Shown here: piece by piece, positions 5,533-14,686 of the stretch | How positions within the stretch are numbered: position 1 is the stretch's first letter | Layout of the letters: each line of letters starts with the position of its first letter | Assembly (NCBI GenBank): GCA_018063165.1 | Contig: JAGOQU010000001.1 | Span: 35,809 to 99,808, forward strand | Source of the DNA: Minisyncoccota bacterium | GTDB taxonomy: Bacteria; Patescibacteriota; Minisyncoccia; Phycocordibacterales; UBA5272 | Direction of reading: 5' to 3' | Length of the DNA stretch: 64,000 nt | Made by a program: the position numbers and the translations under genes | Notes under the pieces: model-generated | Seen by the model: the letters and a program-made list of their open reading frames with translations, nothing else | What the model was told of the DNA's origin: nothing | The model's database searches: none

Positions 5533-6504
5533 ATGATTTTTTATCACTTTCTTTCAAAAAAATATAGTAGTATTTTTTATAGTGCTTGCGCGAGTCTTTT
5601 TTTGAGCTTCTCTATAGTATCAGCCGAAACAGTGTCTGGTAATGGATATACTGTAGATCAAACTATAAGTCCTATATCAGGAATCGTATCTGGTAACGGG
5701 TATACTGTTCAGACTTCTGGTCAAATTGTAGGTGGTATAGCATCTGGTAATGGATATACTTTACAAAGCGTGTTTGGTACGTCAACTGAACCAACAGTAT
5801 TACCTCCTATTGTTCCATCTGGTGGAACCACAAGTAGTGGATCTGGATATTATGTATTACCAGTTACGAGCACTTCTAGTGTTGCAACAACAAGTCCTAT
5901 TGTAGGCAAAGATACTGTTCTTACTACAAATGGTAGTACGTGTGCAACAAGAATAGCTCTTTCTTCTCCTATTGATATTGGTTTAAAGAATAATCCAGAA
6001 GATGTAAAAAAACTTGAAACCTTTTTGAATACATATGAAAAAGAAAAACTTGTCGTAGATGGTATATATGGAAAAGATGATTATCTGGCTGTAAAAAGAT
6101 GGCAGGCAAAATACAAGAATACTATTCTTGTTCCAATGAAATTAAAAAAACCAACAGGTACGATATATACATCTAGTATGCGCCAAATAGAAAGACAAAC
6201 TACAGCATCTTGTGGTCAACAAATTATTGTACACGCTTGTCCATTTTTCAAAAAAACTCTTTCATACGGAGATACTGGAGAAGAAGTTAAAAAAATACAA
6301 CAGTTTTTGAATATTGTACGAGGTGAAAAATTGCCTACAAATGGTAAATATGGCCCAGCGACACTTGCTGCCGTAAAAAGATTCCAGCGTATGTATAGAA
6401 AAGATATTGTAAGCATCGTAAAACTTTCTTTTATTTCTGGAAACTGGAACACACAAACACGTATGAAGGCTAATGCTGTTATTGGTTGTGATGTTATTAA
6501 GTAA
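5533..6504 (+). CDS. secreted repeat protein with two C-terminal peptidoglycan-binding (PG_binding_1-like) domains
   Basis: Signal-like N-terminus. Three SGNGYT(V/L) repeats. Ser/Thr-rich linker. Two copies of the PG-binding helical motif (DVKKLETFLN...DGIYGKDDYLAVKRWQ and GEEVKKIQQFLN...NGKYGPATLAAVKRFQ). Confidence 0.6.
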   Translation: MIFYHFLSKKYSSIFYSACASLFLSFSIVSAETVSGNGYTVDQTISPISGIVSGNGYTVQTSGQIVGGIASGNGYTLQSVFGTSTEPTVLPPIVPSGGTTSSGSGYYVLPVTSTSSVATTSPIVGKDTVLTTNGSTCATRIALSSPIDIGLKNNPEDVKKLETFLNTYEKEKLVVDGIYGKDDYLAVKRWQAKYKNTILVPMKLKKPTGTIYTSSMRQIERQTTASCGQQIIVHACPFFKKTLSYGDTGEEVKKIQQFLNIVRGEKLPTNGKYGPATLAAVKRFQRMYRKDIVSIVKLSFISGNWNTQTRMKANAVIGCDVIK

Positions 6505-6541
6505 AATAATACACCGTTTATAAAAGTGATATACTATTTAT

Positions 6542-6985
6542 ATGGAACAAAAACAAATAGAACATAATTCAATCTCTCAAGAAGAAAAAAATATTCTTTC
6601 AAGAAAATTAAAACAAAAAAGACTTGTAAGAATTATTATGTCTCTTTTTTCTGTTTCCATTTTTTTCTTTTTAACTACGGTATATTCTCAATATCAGGTA
6701 TATAGATTAACTAGATTAGAAGAAGTAAAAGAATCTTCTTTAACACAAGTACCTTCTACACCAAATGAGATTATTAAAGCAGTTTCAAAACTTATTATAT
6801 TACCAGATACAGTTCCACAAATAACATCTATAAAAGATATTGATTCACTGCGTGAAAAAGAAGTTTTTTTTAGAAATGCATTAAATGGGGATGCTGTAAT
6901 TATCTATGAAACAATGATTATTATATATAGACCTACAACTAATATGATTATTGCCGTGGGTGACATTGGAACTGTTTCGGAATAA
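6542..6985 (+). CDS. hypothetical membrane-anchored protein
   Basis: Single TM helix after a charged N-terminus; no family recognised. Confidence 0.4.
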   Translation: MEQKQIEHNSISQEEKNILSRKLKQKRLVRIIMSLFSVSIFFFLTTVYSQYQVYRLTRLEEVKESSLTQVPSTPNEIIKAVSKLIILPDTVPQITSIKDIDSLREKEVFFRNALNGDAVIIYETMIIIYRPTTNMIIAVGDIGTVSE

Positions 6986-7096
6986 GTCCTTTTTATATAA
7001 GAAAGGTGTTGTACACACGTGTTTATACATGACAAAATATTCACTTTATGATAGTATATAGTACAGTCTTTTAATAAAAAGATTTGTTCTAAAAGT

Positions 7097-7172
7097 GCCG
7101 CTTTAGCTCAGTTGGTAGAGCAACGGTTTTGTAAACCGTAGGTCCACAGTTCGAATCTGTGAAGCGGCTCCA
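7097..7172 (+). tRNA. tRNA-Thr (anticodon TGT), CCA encoded
   Basis: Hand-folded cloverleaf. Acceptor GCCGCTT/AAGCGGC, D-arm GCTC/GAGC, anticodon stem ACGGT/ACCGT with loop TTTGTAA, T-arm CACAG-TTCGAAT-CTGTG, 3' TCCA. Confidence 0.85.
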
Positions 7173-7914: not shown

Positions 7915-9177
7915 ATGATTGACCAAATATTGCAAGGTCTCATGTATCCTTTTCTCTTCTTGTCGATGTATTTTCAGGTACTTCTTTTAATATCTTTTTT
8001 TGAGAATGCAAAAAAAATAGAAGAGGAAGAAGACTTTGAAGTAGAAACATATCCTTCCGTTACAATCGCTGTTCCGTGTTGGAATGAAGAAAAAACATTA
8101 GAGGGAACCCTTTTGTCACTTCTTGATCTTGAATATCCAAAAGATAAGCTGTCTATAGTTGTTGTTGATGATGGTAGTAAAGATAAAACACTTCAAATAG
8201 GTCAAGAATATGCAAGATTGTATCCAAAACAAATACATATAATTTCAAAACAAAATGGAGGTAAGCACACAGCAGTTAATGTAGCTTTGGAATATTCGAA
8301 GTCAGATTTTTTTGGATGTCTTGATGCTGATTCTTTTGTTCATAAAAATGCTTTAAAAACTATTATTGCTTATTTTATTCATCATAAAAATGCTATGGCT
8401 GTCACACCTTGTATTCATATTATGTCGCCAAAGACTATTATTCAACGTGTGCAAGCAGTTGAATATTTGATGGGTGTATTTTTACGTAAAGCATTTGGTC
8501 AGCTTGATGCAATACAAGTAACACCAGGTCCTTTTTCTATTTTTAGAAAAGAGGTTTTTGATATTATTGGTAATTACAAAAAAGCTCATAATACTGAAGA
8601 TTATGAAATTACGCTTCGTATGCATAAACATCATCTCAAGATTATGAATTCTCATAAGGCGCTTGTGTATACAGTAGGTCCTTCTACCTTTAAAGGTTAT
8701 TTCTTTCAAAGATTACGTTGGTCTAGAGGATTTCTTGAAAACTCTCTTGATTATAAGGAACTCTTTTTTAAGAAAAAATATGGAAATTTTGGAATGTTTA
8801 CATTACCAATGGCATTTCTTTTTGTGTTTTATGGAATATACGTAGCATTTTTTGTTACGTATACATTTATTAAGCATTACACACAAGTAATAAGTCAGTG
8901 GATGCTTGTAGGTATACATCCTGGTTTACCCACTTTTGATATTTTTTATTTTAATACCACAATTGTTTCTTTTGTTGGAATGGTAATGTTCACTATGTTC
9001 TTGTTTACTATTTATATTGGTAAAACACTTTCTGATGATAAACAAGAACTATATCGTAATTTCCCATTTTTCTTTTTTATTTATCCGCTTTTTGGGCTTA
9101 TACTTTTTCCAAAGGCTGTTTTTGATACTTTTACTCATAGAAAAAATGAGTGGGTTCTTCAAGATACAAAAAAATAA
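7915..9177 (+). CDS. family 2 glycosyltransferase, membrane-embedded processive type (QxxRW motif)
   Basis: GT2 motifs VTIAVPCWNEE and VVVDDGSKDKT. QRLRWSRG motif. Multiple C-terminal TM helices. Confidence 0.75.
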   Translation: MIDQILQGLMYPFLFLSMYFQVLLLISFFENAKKIEEEEDFEVETYPSVTIAVPCWNEEKTLEGTLLSLLDLEYPKDKLSIVVVDDGSKDKTLQIGQEYARLYPKQIHIISKQNGGKHTAVNVALEYSKSDFFGCLDADSFVHKNALKTIIAYFIHHKNAMAVTPCIHIMSPKTIIQRVQAVEYLMGVFLRKAFGQLDAIQVTPGPFSIFRKEVFDIIGNYKKAHNTEDYEITLRMHKHHLKIMNSHKALVYTVGPSTFKGYFFQRLRWSRGFLENSLDYKELFFKKKYGNFGMFTLPMAFLFVFYGIYVAFFVTYTFIKHYTQVISQWMLVGIHPGLPTFDIFYFNTTIVSFVGMVMFTMFLFTIYIGKTLSDDKQELYRNFPFFFFIYPLFGLILFPKAVFDTFTHRKNEWVLQDTKK

Positions 9178-9217: not shown

Positions 9218-9979
9218 ATGCAAGGACACATACACCCAATTAATTTAGCAATTTTACAAATTACAGATATTTTTTCAAAGATGGGTTTTAATACAGTGGA
9301 TGGTCCAGAACTTGAAAATGAGTGGTATAATTTTGACGCACTGAATGTTCCTAAAGATCATCCTTCGCGTGATATGCAAGATACATTTTGGATTAAAGAT
9401 AAGAAAGGTGTTGATAAATTTGGTGAGTCTATGGGGTATGTGCTTCGTACACAAACGAGTAATATGCAAATTCGTACAATGGAAAAACATGTTGCAGAAA
9501 ATTTACCTTATCCTATTGCTATATGCTGTCCTGGAAAAGTATTTCGTAATGAAGCAACAGACGCAACACATGAAGCTCAATTTTTTCAAGTAGAGATGCT
9601 GTATGTTGCTAAGGATGCATCACTTGCTATGATGATTGGTGTTATTGAAAAGTTTTGTTCTGATTTTTTTGGTGGCGAGCTTGTTGTTCGTCTTCGTTCA
9701 AGTTATTTTCCTTTTGTGGAACCAGGTAATGAGATAGATATGCAATGTTTTAAATGTAAAGGAAATGGTTGTAATATTTGTAAACAAACAGGATGGATAG
9801 AACTTGGTGGTGCGGGTATGGTTCATCCAAAAGTTCTTGAAGCTGGAGGTATTAATCCTCGAGAATATAAAGGCTTTGCATTTGGTTGGGGAATAGACAG
9901 GATGGTGATGCTTAAATATAGTGTTGATGATGTCAGACTTCTTTATAACGGTGACCTACGTGTAGTAAATCAATTTTAA
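9218..9979 (+). CDS. pheS: phenylalanine--tRNA ligase alpha subunit (core only, with a CxxC-x4-CxxC insert)
   Basis: Class II aaRS motifs: [49 protein letters not shown]. Confidence 0.85.
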
Positions 9980-10013: not shown

Positions 10014-10370
10014 ATGGCAGAAAGTTATAAACATTTAGAAGTTTGGAAGGATGCAGTTATATTGGCGGAGAGTATTTATTTGATTACTAAAAAGTATCCA
10101 AAAGAGGAAACTTTTAACTGTGTTACTCAGTTACGTAGAGCTGTAGTTTCGGTCTCGTCAAATATTGCTGAAGGATCAAGTAGAAAATCAAAAAAAGATT
10201 TTTCTCGTTTTATAGAAATAGCAAGAGGCTCGTTATATGAAATAGAAAGTCTTATTGAAATTAGTTTAAAATTAGAATATATTACTGTAGAGACATATAC
10301 TCATTTAACAGAAGATATAAACAAATTAGGTGGCAAATTAGGAGCGTTTTATAATTATCTACAAAAATAA
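10014..10370 (+). CDS. four-helix-bundle protein (23S rRNA intervening-sequence protein / Avd-like family)
   Basis: Characteristic sequence KHLEVWKDAVILAESIYLITKKYPKEE...QLRRAVVSVSSNIAEGSSRKSKKDFSRFIEIARGSLYEIESLIEIS. Lies between pheS and pheT. Confidence 0.8.
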   Translation: MAESYKHLEVWKDAVILAESIYLITKKYPKEETFNCVTQLRRAVVSVSSNIAEGSSRKSKKDFSRFIEIARGSLYEIESLIEISLKLEYITVETYTHLTEDINKLGGKLGAFYNYLQK

Positions 10371-10404: not shown

Positions 10405-12786
10405 ATGAAATTTTCAAAAAATTGGTTACAAGATTATATAGATGAGACACTTCCTTCTAATGAAGTAATTGCAGATACACTTAACAAAAAAGCGTTTGAA
10501 GTTGAAGAAGTTATTACCCTTGATGACGATACTGTTTTTGATATTAAAATACTTCCTAACCGTGCACATGACGCTCTTGGTCATCATGGTATGGCGTATG
10601 AACTTTGTTCATGTTTTGGTTTTACATTTAAGCCTGATATTCGTGATAAAGAAAATGATACTTTTTTAAATAAACATATCCCTACTGTTGTTATTAATAT
10701 TGAAAATGAAAAAGCGTGTACGAGATTTATGTCTGTGCAGATAGATGGAGTAACCGTTGGCGAAAGTCCTGTGTGGTTACGAAAAAGACTAGAAGCAATA
10801 GGTCAGCGTAGTATTAATAATATTGTTGATATTACTAACTATGTACAGTTTGCACTTAATAAGCCGATGCACGCATATGATGCAAGACGTATACAAGGTG
10901 GTTTAATTGCGCGCTTCGCGCGTGCTTCCGAGTCTCTTATGACACTAGACGATAAGTCGATCGTGCTCGATGAACAAACTCTTGTAATAGCAGATGATGA
11001 AAAGGTGCTTGGTCTTGCAGGAATAAAAGGGGGGAAGTTTAGTGGAATACAAGCAGATACTACGAGTGTTATACTTGAGAGTGCTAATTTTGATCCAGTA
11101 CTTATACGAAAGACTGCACAAAAATATAATCTTAAAACAGATGCATCGAAGCGTTTTGAAAATGGTATAGCTAATAATCTTATTGTTGAAGGTCTTCATA
11201 TGACTGCCAATCTTATACAAGAAGTTTGTAAAGAGGCAAAAAGAGGTCTTGTTACGGATGTATATCCAAAAAAAGACACCCCATACTTTGTTGGTATTTC
11301 TAAGAATGAATTAAATGCAATTCTTGGAACATCATACACAGATGAGGATATACAAAAAACACTTGTGCAACTTTCACTGCCATTTGAAATTATTATTCCA
11401 GAAACATACATTAAGGAAACGTATCCAACACTTGTAGGAGCTGGCTATAAAAACCCATCATCAATGCGAGAAGATGCGCCTAGGGTGTTTAGCTGTTCTT
11501 CGTTAATAAGTTATCTATATAAAGGTATCTGGATGCCAAGTGTCTCTATTGATAAATATGTTTTTTCAAAAAAAATCTCAAAAGAAGAATTACAATTTGG
11601 TGATCTTGTTTTTGCTAATTCAGGTGAAGGAAAAATACGTTATGAATCAGTAGAATTTTTGAGAGGTACAAAAGTGCCAGAAGGTGTTGATCATGTGGCT
11701 ATGTATATAGGTGACAATACAATATTGCACGCAACTAAAATAAAAGAAATGACACTGGTGGAGTCGTTTGAAGAGTTTGCGGCAGGTCGTACTATTGTTG
11801 GATATGGAAGGATAGTAGAAGATTTAAAAGAAGAGAGATATGTTGTTCGTGTACCGTCGGTACGTCTTGATATTCGTATAAAAGAAGATGTAGCAGAAGA
11901 GATAGGTAGAATACTTGGATATGAAAAATTAGTTCCTGTGTTACCACGTCTTAATCATGTAGGTCTTCTTCATAAGAGAATGTATTATGAAAATAAGATA
12001 CGGGAGATATTAGTTGAAAATGAGTTTTCAGAAGTTATTACGTACACATTTGGCAATGAAGGTGATGTTGCAATTGTGAAAGGGTTAGCTGATGATAAAG
12101 AAAAATTACGTAATTCACTTAGTAAAGGATTGCTTTCGTCACTGGCACTTAATCTCTATAATGCACCTCTTTTAGGACAAAAGACTATACAGCTTTTTGA
12201 GTTTGGTAATGTATTTACTATTGATCAGTATTCAGGAGATAAACGTACCAGTGTAGAAAAAAGATATTTTGGTCTTGCTATAGACGATGGAGCAAAGAAA
12301 AGTAGTTTTACAGAAAATGTTGAAATGATGCTTTCTGCAGTTAAGCGAGCTCTTGGTGTAAAAGAAATAGAGTACACTACTATTTCAGCTAAGCCGTATG
12401 TTATTGAACTTGATTTTGATACACTGATAGCACAATTACCTGAACCATCTGTATATGAAAAAGCTTCTTTCGTGTCTCTATCTCCTGTTAGTTACAAATC
12501 AGTATCGTCTTATCCGTTTATTACCCGTGATATTGCTGTGTGGGTACCTGATACTGTCACATGGGAAAGTATCTATACTATTTGCAATAAAGTGGGTAAT
12601 CCTCTTGCTCGTCGTATCGATCTTTTTGATACGTTTTCTAAGGAGATAGAAGGAGTAAAGAAAACTTCGTACGCGTTTCGTTTGGTATTCCAAAGTTATG
12701 AAAAGACACTTACTGATGAAGAAGTAAATGAGTATATGGAACCATATTATACATCTCTTAAAAAAGAAGGCTACGAAATACGATAA
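10405..12786 (+). CDS. pheT: phenylalanine--tRNA ligase beta subunit with an NlpC/P60-like insert in the B5 domain
   Basis: B3/B4 domain (HAYDARRIQGGLIARFA, GLAGIKGG). B5 domain (FVGISKNELNAILG...VRVPSVRLDI). Core (EEIGRILGYEKL). C-terminal FDX-ACB (FITRDIAVWVP...AFRLVFQS). Confidence 0.85.
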   Translation: MKFSKNWLQDYIDETLPSNEVIADTLNKKAFEVEEVITLDDDTVFDIKILPNRAHDALGHHGMAYELCSCFGFTFKPDIRDKENDTFLNKHIPTVVINIENEKACTRFMSVQIDGVTVGESPVWLRKRLEAIGQRSINNIVDITNYVQFALNKPMHAYDARRIQGGLIARFARASESLMTLDDKSIVLDEQTLVIADDEKVLGLAGIKGGKFSGIQADTTSVILESANFDPVLIRKTAQKYNLKTDASKRFENGIANNLIVEGLHMTANLIQEVCKEAKRGLVTDVYPKKDTPYFVGISKNELNAILGTSYTDEDIQKTLVQLSLPFEIIIPETYIKETYPTLVGAGYKNPSSMREDAPRVFSCSSLISYLYKGIWMPSVSIDKYVFSKKISKEELQFGDLVFANSGEGKIRYESVEFLRGTKVPEGVDHVAMYIGDNTILHATKIKEMTLVESFEEFAAGRTIVGYGRIVEDLKEERYVVRVPSVRLDIRIKEDVAEEIGRILGYEKLVPVLPRLNHVGLLHKRMYYENKIREILVENEFSEVITYTFGNEGDVAIVKGLADDKEKLRNSLSKGLLSSLALNLYNAPLLGQKTIQLFEFGNVFTIDQYSGDKRTSVEKRYFGLAIDDGAKKSSFTENVEMMLSAVKRALGVKEIEYTTISAKPYVIELDFDTLIAQLPEPSVYEKASFVSLSPVSYKSVSSYPFITRDIAVWVPDTVTWESIYTICNKVGNPLARRIDLFDTFSKEIEGVKKTSYAFRLVFQSYEKTLTDEEVNEYMEPYYTSLKKEGYEIR

Positions 12787-12826
12787 AACAAAATGCAAAC
12801 TGTAAACAGTTTGCATTTTGTTTTAT
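12785..12826 (+). terminator. perfect palindromic hairpin plus T-tract after pheT
   Basis: CAAAATGCAAACTG-TAAA-CAGTTTGCATTTTG followed by TTTTAT. Confidence 0.5.
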
Positions 12827-12850
12827 CTAGTTATGTACTACACTATATAT

Positions 12851-13390
12851 ATGAAATTATCCGTACCGTATTATTCTCAATTTCTAGACGCACCTGATAC
12901 ATTTTGGATGATACGTGCTTGTGGAGCTACTGCACTTAAGATGGTTGCAGAGTTTCATGGTAAAGAGCTTCCTTCTATTGTAGAACTATGTAATGAAGCA
13001 AAAGAAAAAGGTGGTTATGATATGCAAAACGGCTGGATACATGATTATATTGTTGCTAAGGCAAAATCACTTGATTTGTCAGCTCACAGAACAGAAAGAG
13101 ATGTTCCTATACTGGACGAAATTATATCATCGCTTGATGCTGGTAACCCTGTTATTGTTTCTGTTGAAAAGAGAGTTCTTGAACAAAAACGTTTTCATAT
13201 TATTGTAATTGTAGGATATGAAAAAGATGAGGAATTTGAATCTTCAGACCCTTATCACTTAACTCCGTCAAATTGTTTTTACTATCATGAACCAGAATCT
13301 ACAGATAGATATCGTGGAGCGTATAAAGTGTGTGATATGGAGACGTTTAAGGAATACTGGAGAGGAAAAGCGATATTTATCACAAAGTAA
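12851..13390 (+). CDS. peptidase C39-like (C39_2/BtrH-like papain-fold cysteine peptidase) domain protein
   Basis: VPYYSQ...WMIRACGATAL (Gln plus Cys motif) and later HIIVIVGYE (His motif). Start placed at the Met after the pheT terminator; the track start at 12818 overlaps the hairpin. Confidence 0.55.
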   Translation: MKLSVPYYSQFLDAPDTFWMIRACGATALKMVAEFHGKELPSIVELCNEAKEKGGYDMQNGWIHDYIVAKAKSLDLSAHRTERDVPILDEIISSLDAGNPVIVSVEKRVLEQKRFHIIVIVGYEKDEEFESSDPYHLTPSNCFYYHEPESTDRYRGAYKVCDMETFKEYWRGKAIFITK

Positions 13391-13411: not shown

Positions 13412-14686
13412 ATGAAACTGTCTGAATACACACATGTGCATTGTATTGGTATTGGGGGTATTGGTATTTCTGCCATAGCAAGGTACTGTAAAAGTAAGGG
13501 TGCTGTTGTTACTGGTTCAGATGGAGGCACTTCTCGCATTACAGATGATTTACAAAAAGAGGGGATGACAGTGTATAAGGGGCATGATGTGAATAATCTT
13601 TCAGAAACTATTGATCTTGTTATCTATACTATTGCAGTTACAGATACTAATGTAGAATTAAAAAATGCTCGAGCAAAAGGTATTACATGTATGACATATC
13701 CAGAGGCGCTTGGTATGCTCACGAAAGAATACACAACAATAGCAGTGTGTGGTACTCATGGTAAGACGACAACAACAGCAATGGTTGCGAGTATGCTAAC
13801 ATCTGCAGGAAAAAAGCCAACAGTGATAGTTGGTAGCCTTCTTGCTGGAAACGGAACAAATTTTGTAGAAGGTGATAGTGATTATTTAGTGGTAGAAGCG
13901 TGTGAATATAAACGTTCATTTCTTAACCTTCATCCAATACATATACTTGTAACCAATATTGATGAAGACCATCTTGATTATTATAAAGATATATATGATA
14001 TTGAAAGTGCGTTTCAAGAATTTACAGATAAGCTTCCTAAAGAAGGAACTCTTATTACTCACAGTGATGTAAATCTGTCTACGTTGGCAAGGAAAATAAA
14101 TGCAGATACGTTTGATAAAGAAACAATAGAATTATCTGTTCTTGGTGATCATAACAAACAAAATGCACAGCTCGCGCTCGCGCTCGCTGACGCTTTAGGG
14201 TTAGACCATACCAAGGCGAGGGAAGGACTCCGCGCATTCACTGGTACATGGCGTAGACTTGAATATAAAGGAACTCAAAAAGGGGCTATTGTATATGATG
14301 ACTATGGACACCATCCAACAGAGATACAAGCGACTCTACAAGCACTTCGTGAAAAATATATTTCTGGAAAGTTTAAATTAATTGTTGTGTTTCAACCGCA
14401 TCTTTTTTCTCGTACTAAGCTATTACTCAAAGAATTTTCGGAAGCTTTTTCTCTAGCTGATACAATTTGTATTCTTCCAATTTATAAAGCGCGTGAGGTT
14501 GATGATGGTACTATATCATCGCATGACTTGGTGGAGATAACCGACAATGCTATATATATGGAGACCTTTGAAGAGGTGAAGAAGTATCTTGATAAGAATG
14601 CTCACAGTGGCTCAGTAGTTCTTACTATCGGCGCAGGGGATGTATATCTTCTGTCGGATATATTTATAACTGAGGAACAGAAATAA
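13412..14686 (+). CDS. murC: UDP-N-acetylmuramate--L-alanine ligase
   Basis: HCIGIGGIGISAIA, GSDGG, AVCGTHGKTTTTAMVA. Mur ligase middle and C-terminal domains. Confidence 0.85.
   Translation: MKLSEYTHVHCIGIGGIGISAIARYCKSKGAVVTGSDGGTSRITDDLQKEGMTVYKGHDVNNLSETIDLVIYTIAVTDTNVELKNARAKGITCMTYPEALGMLTKEYTTIAVCGTHGKTTTTAMVASMLTSAGKKPTVIVGSLLAGNGTNFVEGDSDYLVVEACEYKRSFLNLHPIHILVTNIDEDHLDYYKDIYDIESAFQEFTDKLPKEGTLITHSDVNLSTLARKINADTFDKETIELSVLGDHNKQNAQLALALADALGLDHTKAREGLRAFTGTWRRLEYKGTQKGAIVYDDYGHHPTEIQATLQALREKYISGKFKLIVVFQPHLFSRTKLLLKEFSEAFSLADTICILPIYKAREVDDGTISSHDLVEITDNAIYMETFEEVKKYLDKNAHSGSVVLTIGAGDVYLLSDIFITEEQK

Follow-up and report, generated by a model that had tools for sequence, protein, structure and literature searches.

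How a domain of the kind found in cell-wall peptidases comes to lie inside a subunit of an aminoacyl-tRNA synthetase, and what it might do there, is the question raised by the pheT gene of a Minisyncoccota bacterium (assembly GCA_018063165.1). The gene lies in the stretch of DNA that was analyzed, 64,000 nt of contig JAGOQU010000001.1 (35,809–99,808, forward strand), referred to here as the window. It encodes the beta subunit of phenylalanyl-tRNA synthetase (PheRS), and a first-pass annotation made from the sequence alone had noted an insert of about 145 amino acids (aa), with motifs of an NlpC/P60 papain-fold domain, within the subunit's B5 domain. Close orthologues were compared as a set of 121 aligned sequences, consisting of the window PheT and its 120 best full-length matches. 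One of these matches (P0059) is an identical database copy, named by NCBI 'MAG: C40 family peptidase [Candidatus Pacebacteria bacterium]'. The insert is present in 117 of the 121. Its features in the window are as follows, with conservation given for these 117 close orthologues and for 211 modules of the wider family.

10405–12786, + strand: pheT, PheRS beta subunit, 793 aa, a single open reading frame (ORF); TIGR00472 (pheT_bact) 451.5 bits, cut-off 402.65
11281–11400, + strand: N-terminal half of B5, residues ~293–332, ending in the strand LSLPFEII, from alignments with E. coli PheT and an insert-less orthologue
11401–11838, + strand: nested NlpC/P60 (MEROPS C40) papain-fold domain, residues ~333–478, in the B5 beta-hairpin
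11494–11496, + strand: codon of the predicted catalytic Cys364, motif FSCSSL; Cys in 117/117 and 209/211
11692–11694, + strand: codon of the predicted catalytic His430, motif VDHVAMY; His in 116/117 and 209/211; aligns with the catalytic His of 7cfl
11728–11730, + strand: codon of His442, predicted third residue of the triad, motif ILHATK; His in 117/117 and 196/211
11839–11934, + strand: C-terminal half of B5, residues ~479–510, YVVRVPSVRLDIRIKEDVAEEIGRILGY

The gene was found to be one continuous ORF without a frameshift, as first annotated, and all of the motifs quoted for it are present: LSLPFEII, FSCSSLISYLY (with Cys364), DHVAMYIGDNTILHA (with His430 and His442) and VRVPSVRLDI. The insert had been placed at 11393–11840. 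This location is right, but the range is one base out of frame; an in-frame range is 11392–11841, and alignment gives 11401–11838. The bounds, and a length of ~146 residues (333–478), were taken from alignment with an insert-less orthologue of 639 aa, which reads '...LLF KYVTENDI YTVEIPDERLDIRIKED...' at the insertion point of the window protein. When aligned with E. coli PheT, the insert falls within the B5 hairpin, between 'GCEVTEG' and 'KDEWQAVAPSWRFD'.

The host protein otherwise resembles canonical PheT (T. thermophilus 1b70_B, S. haemolyticus 2rhs_B, E. coli b1713). Its pheT_bact score exceeds the equivalog cut-off, its gene shares an operon with pheS, the editing residues are kept, and its domains are ordered as B1, B3/4, B5 with the nested domain, B6/7 (CLM) and B8 (FDX-ACB). 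Pfam recognized B3_4, B5 as two stretches flanking NLPC_P60, tRNA_synthFbeta and FDX-ACB, and B1 was recognized through alignment with E. coli PheT. The departures from canonical PheT are an enzyme domain of 146 aa in the B5 hairpin and the absence of B2. Loss of B2 from the PheRS beta subunit of bacteria of the candidate phyla radiation (CPR) has been reported previously (PMC5370408). In an AlphaFold model, the N-terminal half of B5 forms a strand, two successive helices and a strand, and the two halves are predicted to re-form an intact B5 fold around a separately folded papain-like domain. Residues H265, T354 and A356 (E. coli numbering) are identical in the window protein and 13 relatives, and E334 is either the same or Ser; these four are reported, from mutagenesis, as residues of the post-transfer editing site of E. 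coli PheT. Since the window protein thus retains its own B3/4 editing residues, the insert does not stand in for an editing site.

The assignment of the insert to NlpC/P60 was borne out by profile searches. The insert alone matched Pfam NLPC_P60 (PF00877) at 46 bits (E 5.6e-12; 39.9 bits for the full protein), above the curated gathering cut-off of 23. A profile built from the module alignment matched 37 distinct NlpC/P60 sequences in the PDB, the best being C. difficile Acd24020 (7cfl) with an E-value of 4e-18. Cys364, His430 and His442 align, in non-permuted order, with the FDCS and HVGIY...IHA motifs of the NlpC/P60 triad, and the helix with the Cys is predicted to pack on an antiparallel sheet with the His residues, as in a papain-like alpha+beta fold. 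In the wider family, the position of His442, when not His, is mostly N, Q or D, with a few Y, G and A. Mean identity of the insert to the window sequence is 0.70 across the 117 orthologues, as compared to 0.59–0.82 for the other PheT domains. This pattern of conservation indicates that the triad and the insert as a whole are under purifying selection across a large clade of Paceibacteria. The insert looks active and is predicted to be a catalytically competent NlpC/P60 (C40) cysteine hydrolase.

The closest known enzymes are P60-type C40 D,L-endopeptidases and LD-carboxypeptidases (C. difficile Acd24020, E. coli MepS/Spr, B. subtilis CwlO/LytE, and the YkfC-type enzymes 3h41 and 2evr). These share with the module the non-permuted Cys...His...His order and the motifs xFxCSxL, GDLVF and HVxxYxGxxxxxHA. 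Identity to solved C40 structures is only 19–27%. Unlike those enzymes, the module is nested in another domain of a cytoplasmic aminoacyl-tRNA synthetase subunit and is without a signal peptide, lipobox, or SH3b or LysM targeting domain.

Among Paceibacteria the nested domain is widespread. At E<=1e-10, an exhaustive HMMER search of 1.84 billion representatives gave 156 clusters formed at 50% identity; the majority of the top 150 are full-length PheT of 770–840 aa with the domain near residues 340–490. An insert-only, word-indexed search had returned only proteins of 186–241 aa, as if the window fusion were unique; the full-length and HMMER searches overturned this. A pattern scan of GTDB, in which each species is represented by one genome and exact peptide patterns are needed, gave 62 loci as a lower bound. 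All are in Patescibacteria-type metagenome-assembled genomes (Paceibacterota, Parcubacteria, Zambryskibacteria, Nomurabacteria and others), some of whose labels are clearly loose. ORF-by-ORF analysis divided the loci as follows.

Module embedded in PheT: 48 loci
Module stand-alone: 13 loci
Module fused to a C39_2 peptidase: 1 locus

At least 48 GTDB species have the module inside PheT, with 14 more having it stand-alone or fused. At one GTDB locus (L045) the PheT frame is split, with B1, B3/4, module and CLM in an ORF of 630 aa and FDX-ACB in a separate ORF of 177 aa, which may reflect a frameshift, an error in sequencing or a true split. Three weaker matches to the insert, P0207 (1183 aa), P0296 (666 aa) and P0325 (537 aa), have 4–9 tandem NlpC/P60 domains (284–708 Pfam bits in total) and are unrelated to PheT.

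Three natural variants bear on whether the nested domain can be separated from its host. The first is loss. Four near-identical clusters of PheT, 639 aa in length, have no insert, and the gap is precise. Trees were neighbor-joining distance trees with no support values and no outgroup; in the tree computed without the insert columns, this lineage lies deep within the insert-bearing clade, and its loss of the insert is therefore taken to be secondary and clean. L009, the single locus retrieved for these PheT sequences, reads pheS-pheT-murC, and the C39_2 peptidase gene and the small gene between pheS and pheT that are present in the window (listed below) are absent.

The second variant is a stand-alone family of ~200–240 aa, which consists of the B5 N-terminal half, the NlpC/P60 domain and the B5 C-terminal half and nothing more. 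Stand-alone modules, like the insert-less lineage, fall inside the PheT-embedded diversity, and the choice between one and two stand-alone origins is left undecided because the distance trees have no support values or outgroup. Where a stand-alone module has a PheS neighbor, that neighbor is a single chain of 375–400 aa with a PheS core and an FDX-ACB domain (10/10 GTDB loci, and also L001 and L004–L008; the contig of L003 is already counted among the ten). At these loci, no other part of PheT was found within ~6 kb on either side, and most of them are adjoined by the same glycosyltransferase. Next to PheT-embedded modules, every adjoining PheS gene is of the short form, and the pheS-pheT order is kept in all such loci. 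Modules at L011, L065, L066 and L069 are far from any PheRS gene.

The third variant is fusion of the module to a C39_2-like peptidase, found in P0186, P0187 (locus L011) and L065, which belong to separate 50%-identity clusters. The fusions are single ORFs of ~392–403 aa away from PheRS genes (L011, 5001–6194; L065, ~5959–7167). Taken together, the three variants show that peptidase and synthetase are separable.

In the window, a gene for such a peptidase directly follows pheT. The other genes of this same-strand string, which are separated by short gaps, are listed here.

7915–9177, + strand: family-2 glycosyltransferase, first of the string
9218–9979, + strand: pheS, short PheRS alpha subunit, 253 aa; TIGR00468 278.9 bits, cut-off 237.45
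10014–10370, + strand: small gene resembling 23S-rRNA-intervening-sequence proteins (IVP), 118 aa, between pheS and pheT
12851–13390 (ORF listed from 12818), + strand: Peptidase_C39_2-like cysteine peptidase, Pfam PF13529, directly downstream of pheT
13412–14686, + strand: murC, last of the listed string

The C39_2 protein matched PF13529 at 54 bits (threshold 24), and its residues Q10, C24, H116 and H146 are invariant in 40 sequences. Its AlphaFold model (pLDDT 90) gave Foldseek matches to the double-glycine peptidase domains of ComA and PCAT1 and to staphopain, and it also resembles the pseudomurein endoisopeptidase PeiR. Gene neighborhoods were counted over 6 kb on either side of the module. 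The C39_2 gene is directly downstream of the module in 37/73 loci, in the embedded and one stand-alone configuration; strict co-inheritance was rejected on the same count, 37/73 being all of the loci with the gene within 6 kb. The C39_2 protein is thus a probable functional partner of the nested domain, one that is frequent and supported by the fusions, although not obligatory. Downstream of pheT and the C39_2 gene, on the same strand, the window and many relatives have genes for Mur ligases.

Several features of this string stand apart from the nested domain. The partner PheS differs from canonical PheS in that the N-terminal coiled-coil arm is missing, and in having a CxxC...CxxC knuckle, which the single-chain enzymes of relatives do not share. 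The adjacent pheS scores above its equivalog cut-off and no second pheT was found in the 64-kb window, which supports a putative (alpha-beta)2 enzyme formed by the two gene products. The IVP gene encodes a bAvd-like four-helix bundle (23S_rRNA_IVP, 121.6 Pfam bits); it occupies the same slot between pheS and pheT in L010, L019 and L027 and is absent from most relatives, including the insert-less lineage. A perfect 21-bp hairpin at 12782–12827 extends over the stop codon of pheT (RNA fold −30.3 kcal/mol, z −8.9, 0/200 shuffles equally stable), with no T-run 3' of it on the + strand. Because the hairpin covers the listed TTG at 12818, translation of the C39_2 gene likelier starts at the ATG at 12851 (MKLSVPYYSQ, as in homologues). 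An Rfam scan of the window gave tRNAs and no other RNA element. A role in a defense system was rejected, since PADLOC matched neither the module nor the fusion, nor the C39_2 and IVP proteins.

The single-chain PheRS of relatives was compared with the window enzyme. Such proteins (~380 aa) are encoded at L001 (6818–7960, − strand), L003 (6792–7961, − strand), L006 (4862–6001, + strand) and L008 (108–1256, + strand), and at ten GTDB loci (L057–L059, L061–L064, L067, L070 and L071). In the PDB they match human mitochondrial PheRS best (E 1e-56, 195 bits, as compared to ~125 bits for bacterial alpha chains). In their combination of a PheS core with FDX-ACB in 380 aa, they resemble human FARS2 (3cmq, 8p8x); this likeness concerns the relatives and not the window enzyme. 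The relatives' chain differs from FARS2 in being bacterial, in scoring just below the cut-offs of TIGR00469 (pheS_mito; 240.9 and 220.2 bits, cut-off 258.35) and SrmL, and in being accompanied by a leftover piece of a beta subunit. The PheS part is 26–28% identical to the window PheS and the FDX part 32–36% identical to that of the window. An in-place deletion within the pheS-pheT operon was rejected on these identities, and displacement by a divergent enzyme appears more likely. The presence in bacteria of a single-chain PheRS of mitochondrial type is relevant to the way in which the mitochondrial enzyme could have arisen, and it seems to merit a separate study.

These observations are best accommodated if the insert in the B5 hairpin is an NlpC/P60 cysteine hydrolase that PheT carries as a cytoplasmic peptidase or amidase, a reading to which a probability of roughly 50% is given. 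The nested domain would work in the cytoplasm at a job independent of aminoacylation and without need for the heterotetrameric synthetase. PheT would serve as carrier and scaffold and would provide constitutive expression, and the B5 halves would be retained in stand-alone modules because the nested domain needs the B5 scaffold. The domain would often act in the same process as the C39_2-like peptidase. Most speculatively, its substrates would be small peptides with gamma-glutamyl or D-amino-acid links, for example stem peptides of the cell wall that an organism unable to make its own amino acids takes up or turns over. By analogy such peptides may be the likeliest substrates, an idea prompted by the closest solved relatives, which are gamma-D-Glu-diamino-acid endopeptidases and LD-carboxypeptidases, and by the Mur ligase genes downstream on the same strand.

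Several points weigh against this proposal. The substrate-binding arginine of the P60 'PR' motif and the GG loop are replaced (by PS and YKNPSSMR, respectively), so that the specificity of the insert may differ from that of the known D,L-endopeptidases. The suggested substrates are drawn only from relatives in fold. About half of the loci, the main stand-alone clade among them, have no C39_2 gene within 6 kb. The absence of PheT near stand-alone modules is known for the ~6-kb flanks only. In addition, the stand-alone module has remained next to a PheRS gene, whose stop codon it overlaps in one clade; this would also fit a function that is still linked to PheRS or to tRNA.

Such a function could take the form of action through Cys364 on the aminoacyl ester of Phe-tRNA(Phe), or on mischarged or N-blocked species, by hydrolysis (additional or trans proofreading) or by acyl transfer, for example to a cell-wall precursor. 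The domain is, after all, built into PheRS, and the stand-alone form adjoins a PheRS gene; it follows that gene on the same strand in L006–L008 and L070/L071, with its start overlapping the stop codon in L006–L008. The single-chain PheRS has no B3/4 editing domain, and a trans-acting hydrolase could be useful to it. Acyltransferases exist within the NlpC/P60 superfamily and weak LRAT matches were seen, and the Mur ligase genes that follow pheT and the C39_2 gene would suit a transfer to wall precursors. Set against these points, clean loss of the insert leaves PheT otherwise unchanged, the canonical editing residues are kept beside the insert, and the modules at the four loci named above are distant from PheRS genes. 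The closest structures are all peptidoglycan peptidases, none of them tRNA-acting, and no nucleic-acid-binding feature was identified in the module. A role on aminoacyl-tRNA is therefore considered unlikely. A more specific version, in which the papain-type cysteine takes the phenylalanyl or mischarged group from tRNA(Phe) as a thioester that is then hydrolyzed or transferred to a peptide or cell-wall precursor, is a little less likely again. If true, it would account for the persistence of the module within or beside PheRS even after replacement by the single chain, and it would represent a new kind of synthetase-associated enzyme, with proofreading by a fold never seen in that role.

The high conservation of the triad also bears on whether the nested domain is an enzyme at all. 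It might be a binding or scaffolding module like the NlpC/P60 protein RipD, or a tolerated passenger without function; a weak NCBIfam match to the inactive RipD family points this way, neutral persistence is possible for insertions in surface hairpins of large proteins, and one lineage lost the insert with no evident harm. However, 209/211 modules keep the Cys, and as many keep the first His, with a polar residue almost always in third position; the insert is conserved within the range of the other PheT domains; and the module has persisted as a separate gene where the remainder of PheT has gone, which is unexpected of a functionless passenger. A non-catalytic role is therefore quite improbable.

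Equally doubtful is an exported or surface-exposed wall hydrolase, with PheRS or the module moonlighting outside the cell on the organism's own wall or that of a host. The closest solved relatives are secreted autolysins, Patescibacteria are described in the literature as attached to host cells, and the L011 fusion gene is near genes for a D-Ala-D-Ala carboxypeptidase (Peptidase_S11) and an MraY-like glycosyltransferase. ScpA/B genes are also near this fusion. PheRS, however, is a cytoplasmic enzyme. No signal peptide or hydrophobic N-terminal segment was found in PheT or in 58 stand-alone modules, and one was found in only 2/120 C39_2 partners. The moonlighting activity in cell-wall or lipid remodelling that the first-pass annotation put forward is thus hypothetical, and this lack of an export signal argues against action on the cell's own wall from outside.

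An artefact, in which an assembly chimera or a frameshift joined two genes, is refuted: its sole hint is the origin of the window in a metagenome-assembled genome, and against it stand the continuous ORF, the clean boundaries and even base composition over insert and flanks (GC 0.33–0.37), an architecture found in 117/121 aligned sequences from four data sources (NCBI, JGI, ENA and Logan assemblies) and in at least 48 GTDB species, and flanking B5 halves that fit together in the model.

With the cytoplasmic hydrolase as the preferred reading, PheT of the window can be compared with other synthetases that carry accessory domains. Editing domains are inserted in class I and class II enzymes, and AlaX/YbaK-type modules are known. 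The arrangement described here is similar in that a separately folded hydrolytic domain is inserted in a synthetase and free-standing paralogues exist. It differs in that the known inserted hydrolases are editing folds acting on aminoacyl-tRNA, whereas the PheT insert has a papain fold and belongs to a family of cell-wall-peptide peptidases, and the genomic evidence points to a job separable from the synthetase. We know of no bacterial synthetase with an inserted catalytic domain other than an editing domain. The view of the first-pass annotation that the arrangement is undescribed was upheld, as no account of a PheT-nested NlpC/P60 domain was found by full-text searches of the literature, nor in a large CPR protein-family study or a 2023 classification of papain-like peptidases; the automatic NCBI name does show the C40 domain. 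The novelty lies in the combination: an enzyme of papain fold and cell-wall type sits within a domain of a synthetase, and the same module also occurs free-standing and fused.

Aminoacyl-tRNA synthetases rank with the most highly conserved proteins, and a cell-wall-type cysteine peptidase nested in one of them is a kind of insertion for which no report was found. The finding also has a practical side. Because automatic annotation detects the nested C40 domain, the essential pheT is misnamed, as a 'C40 family peptidase' in the case of the window PheT; some orthologues carry the name 'phenylalanine--tRNA ligase beta subunit-related protein' instead. Such names can make pheT seem absent in surveys of metabolism or completeness in Patescibacteria. 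The three natural forms, PheT with the domain, PheT after its loss, and the domain alone, provide handles on function in organisms that are unculturable.

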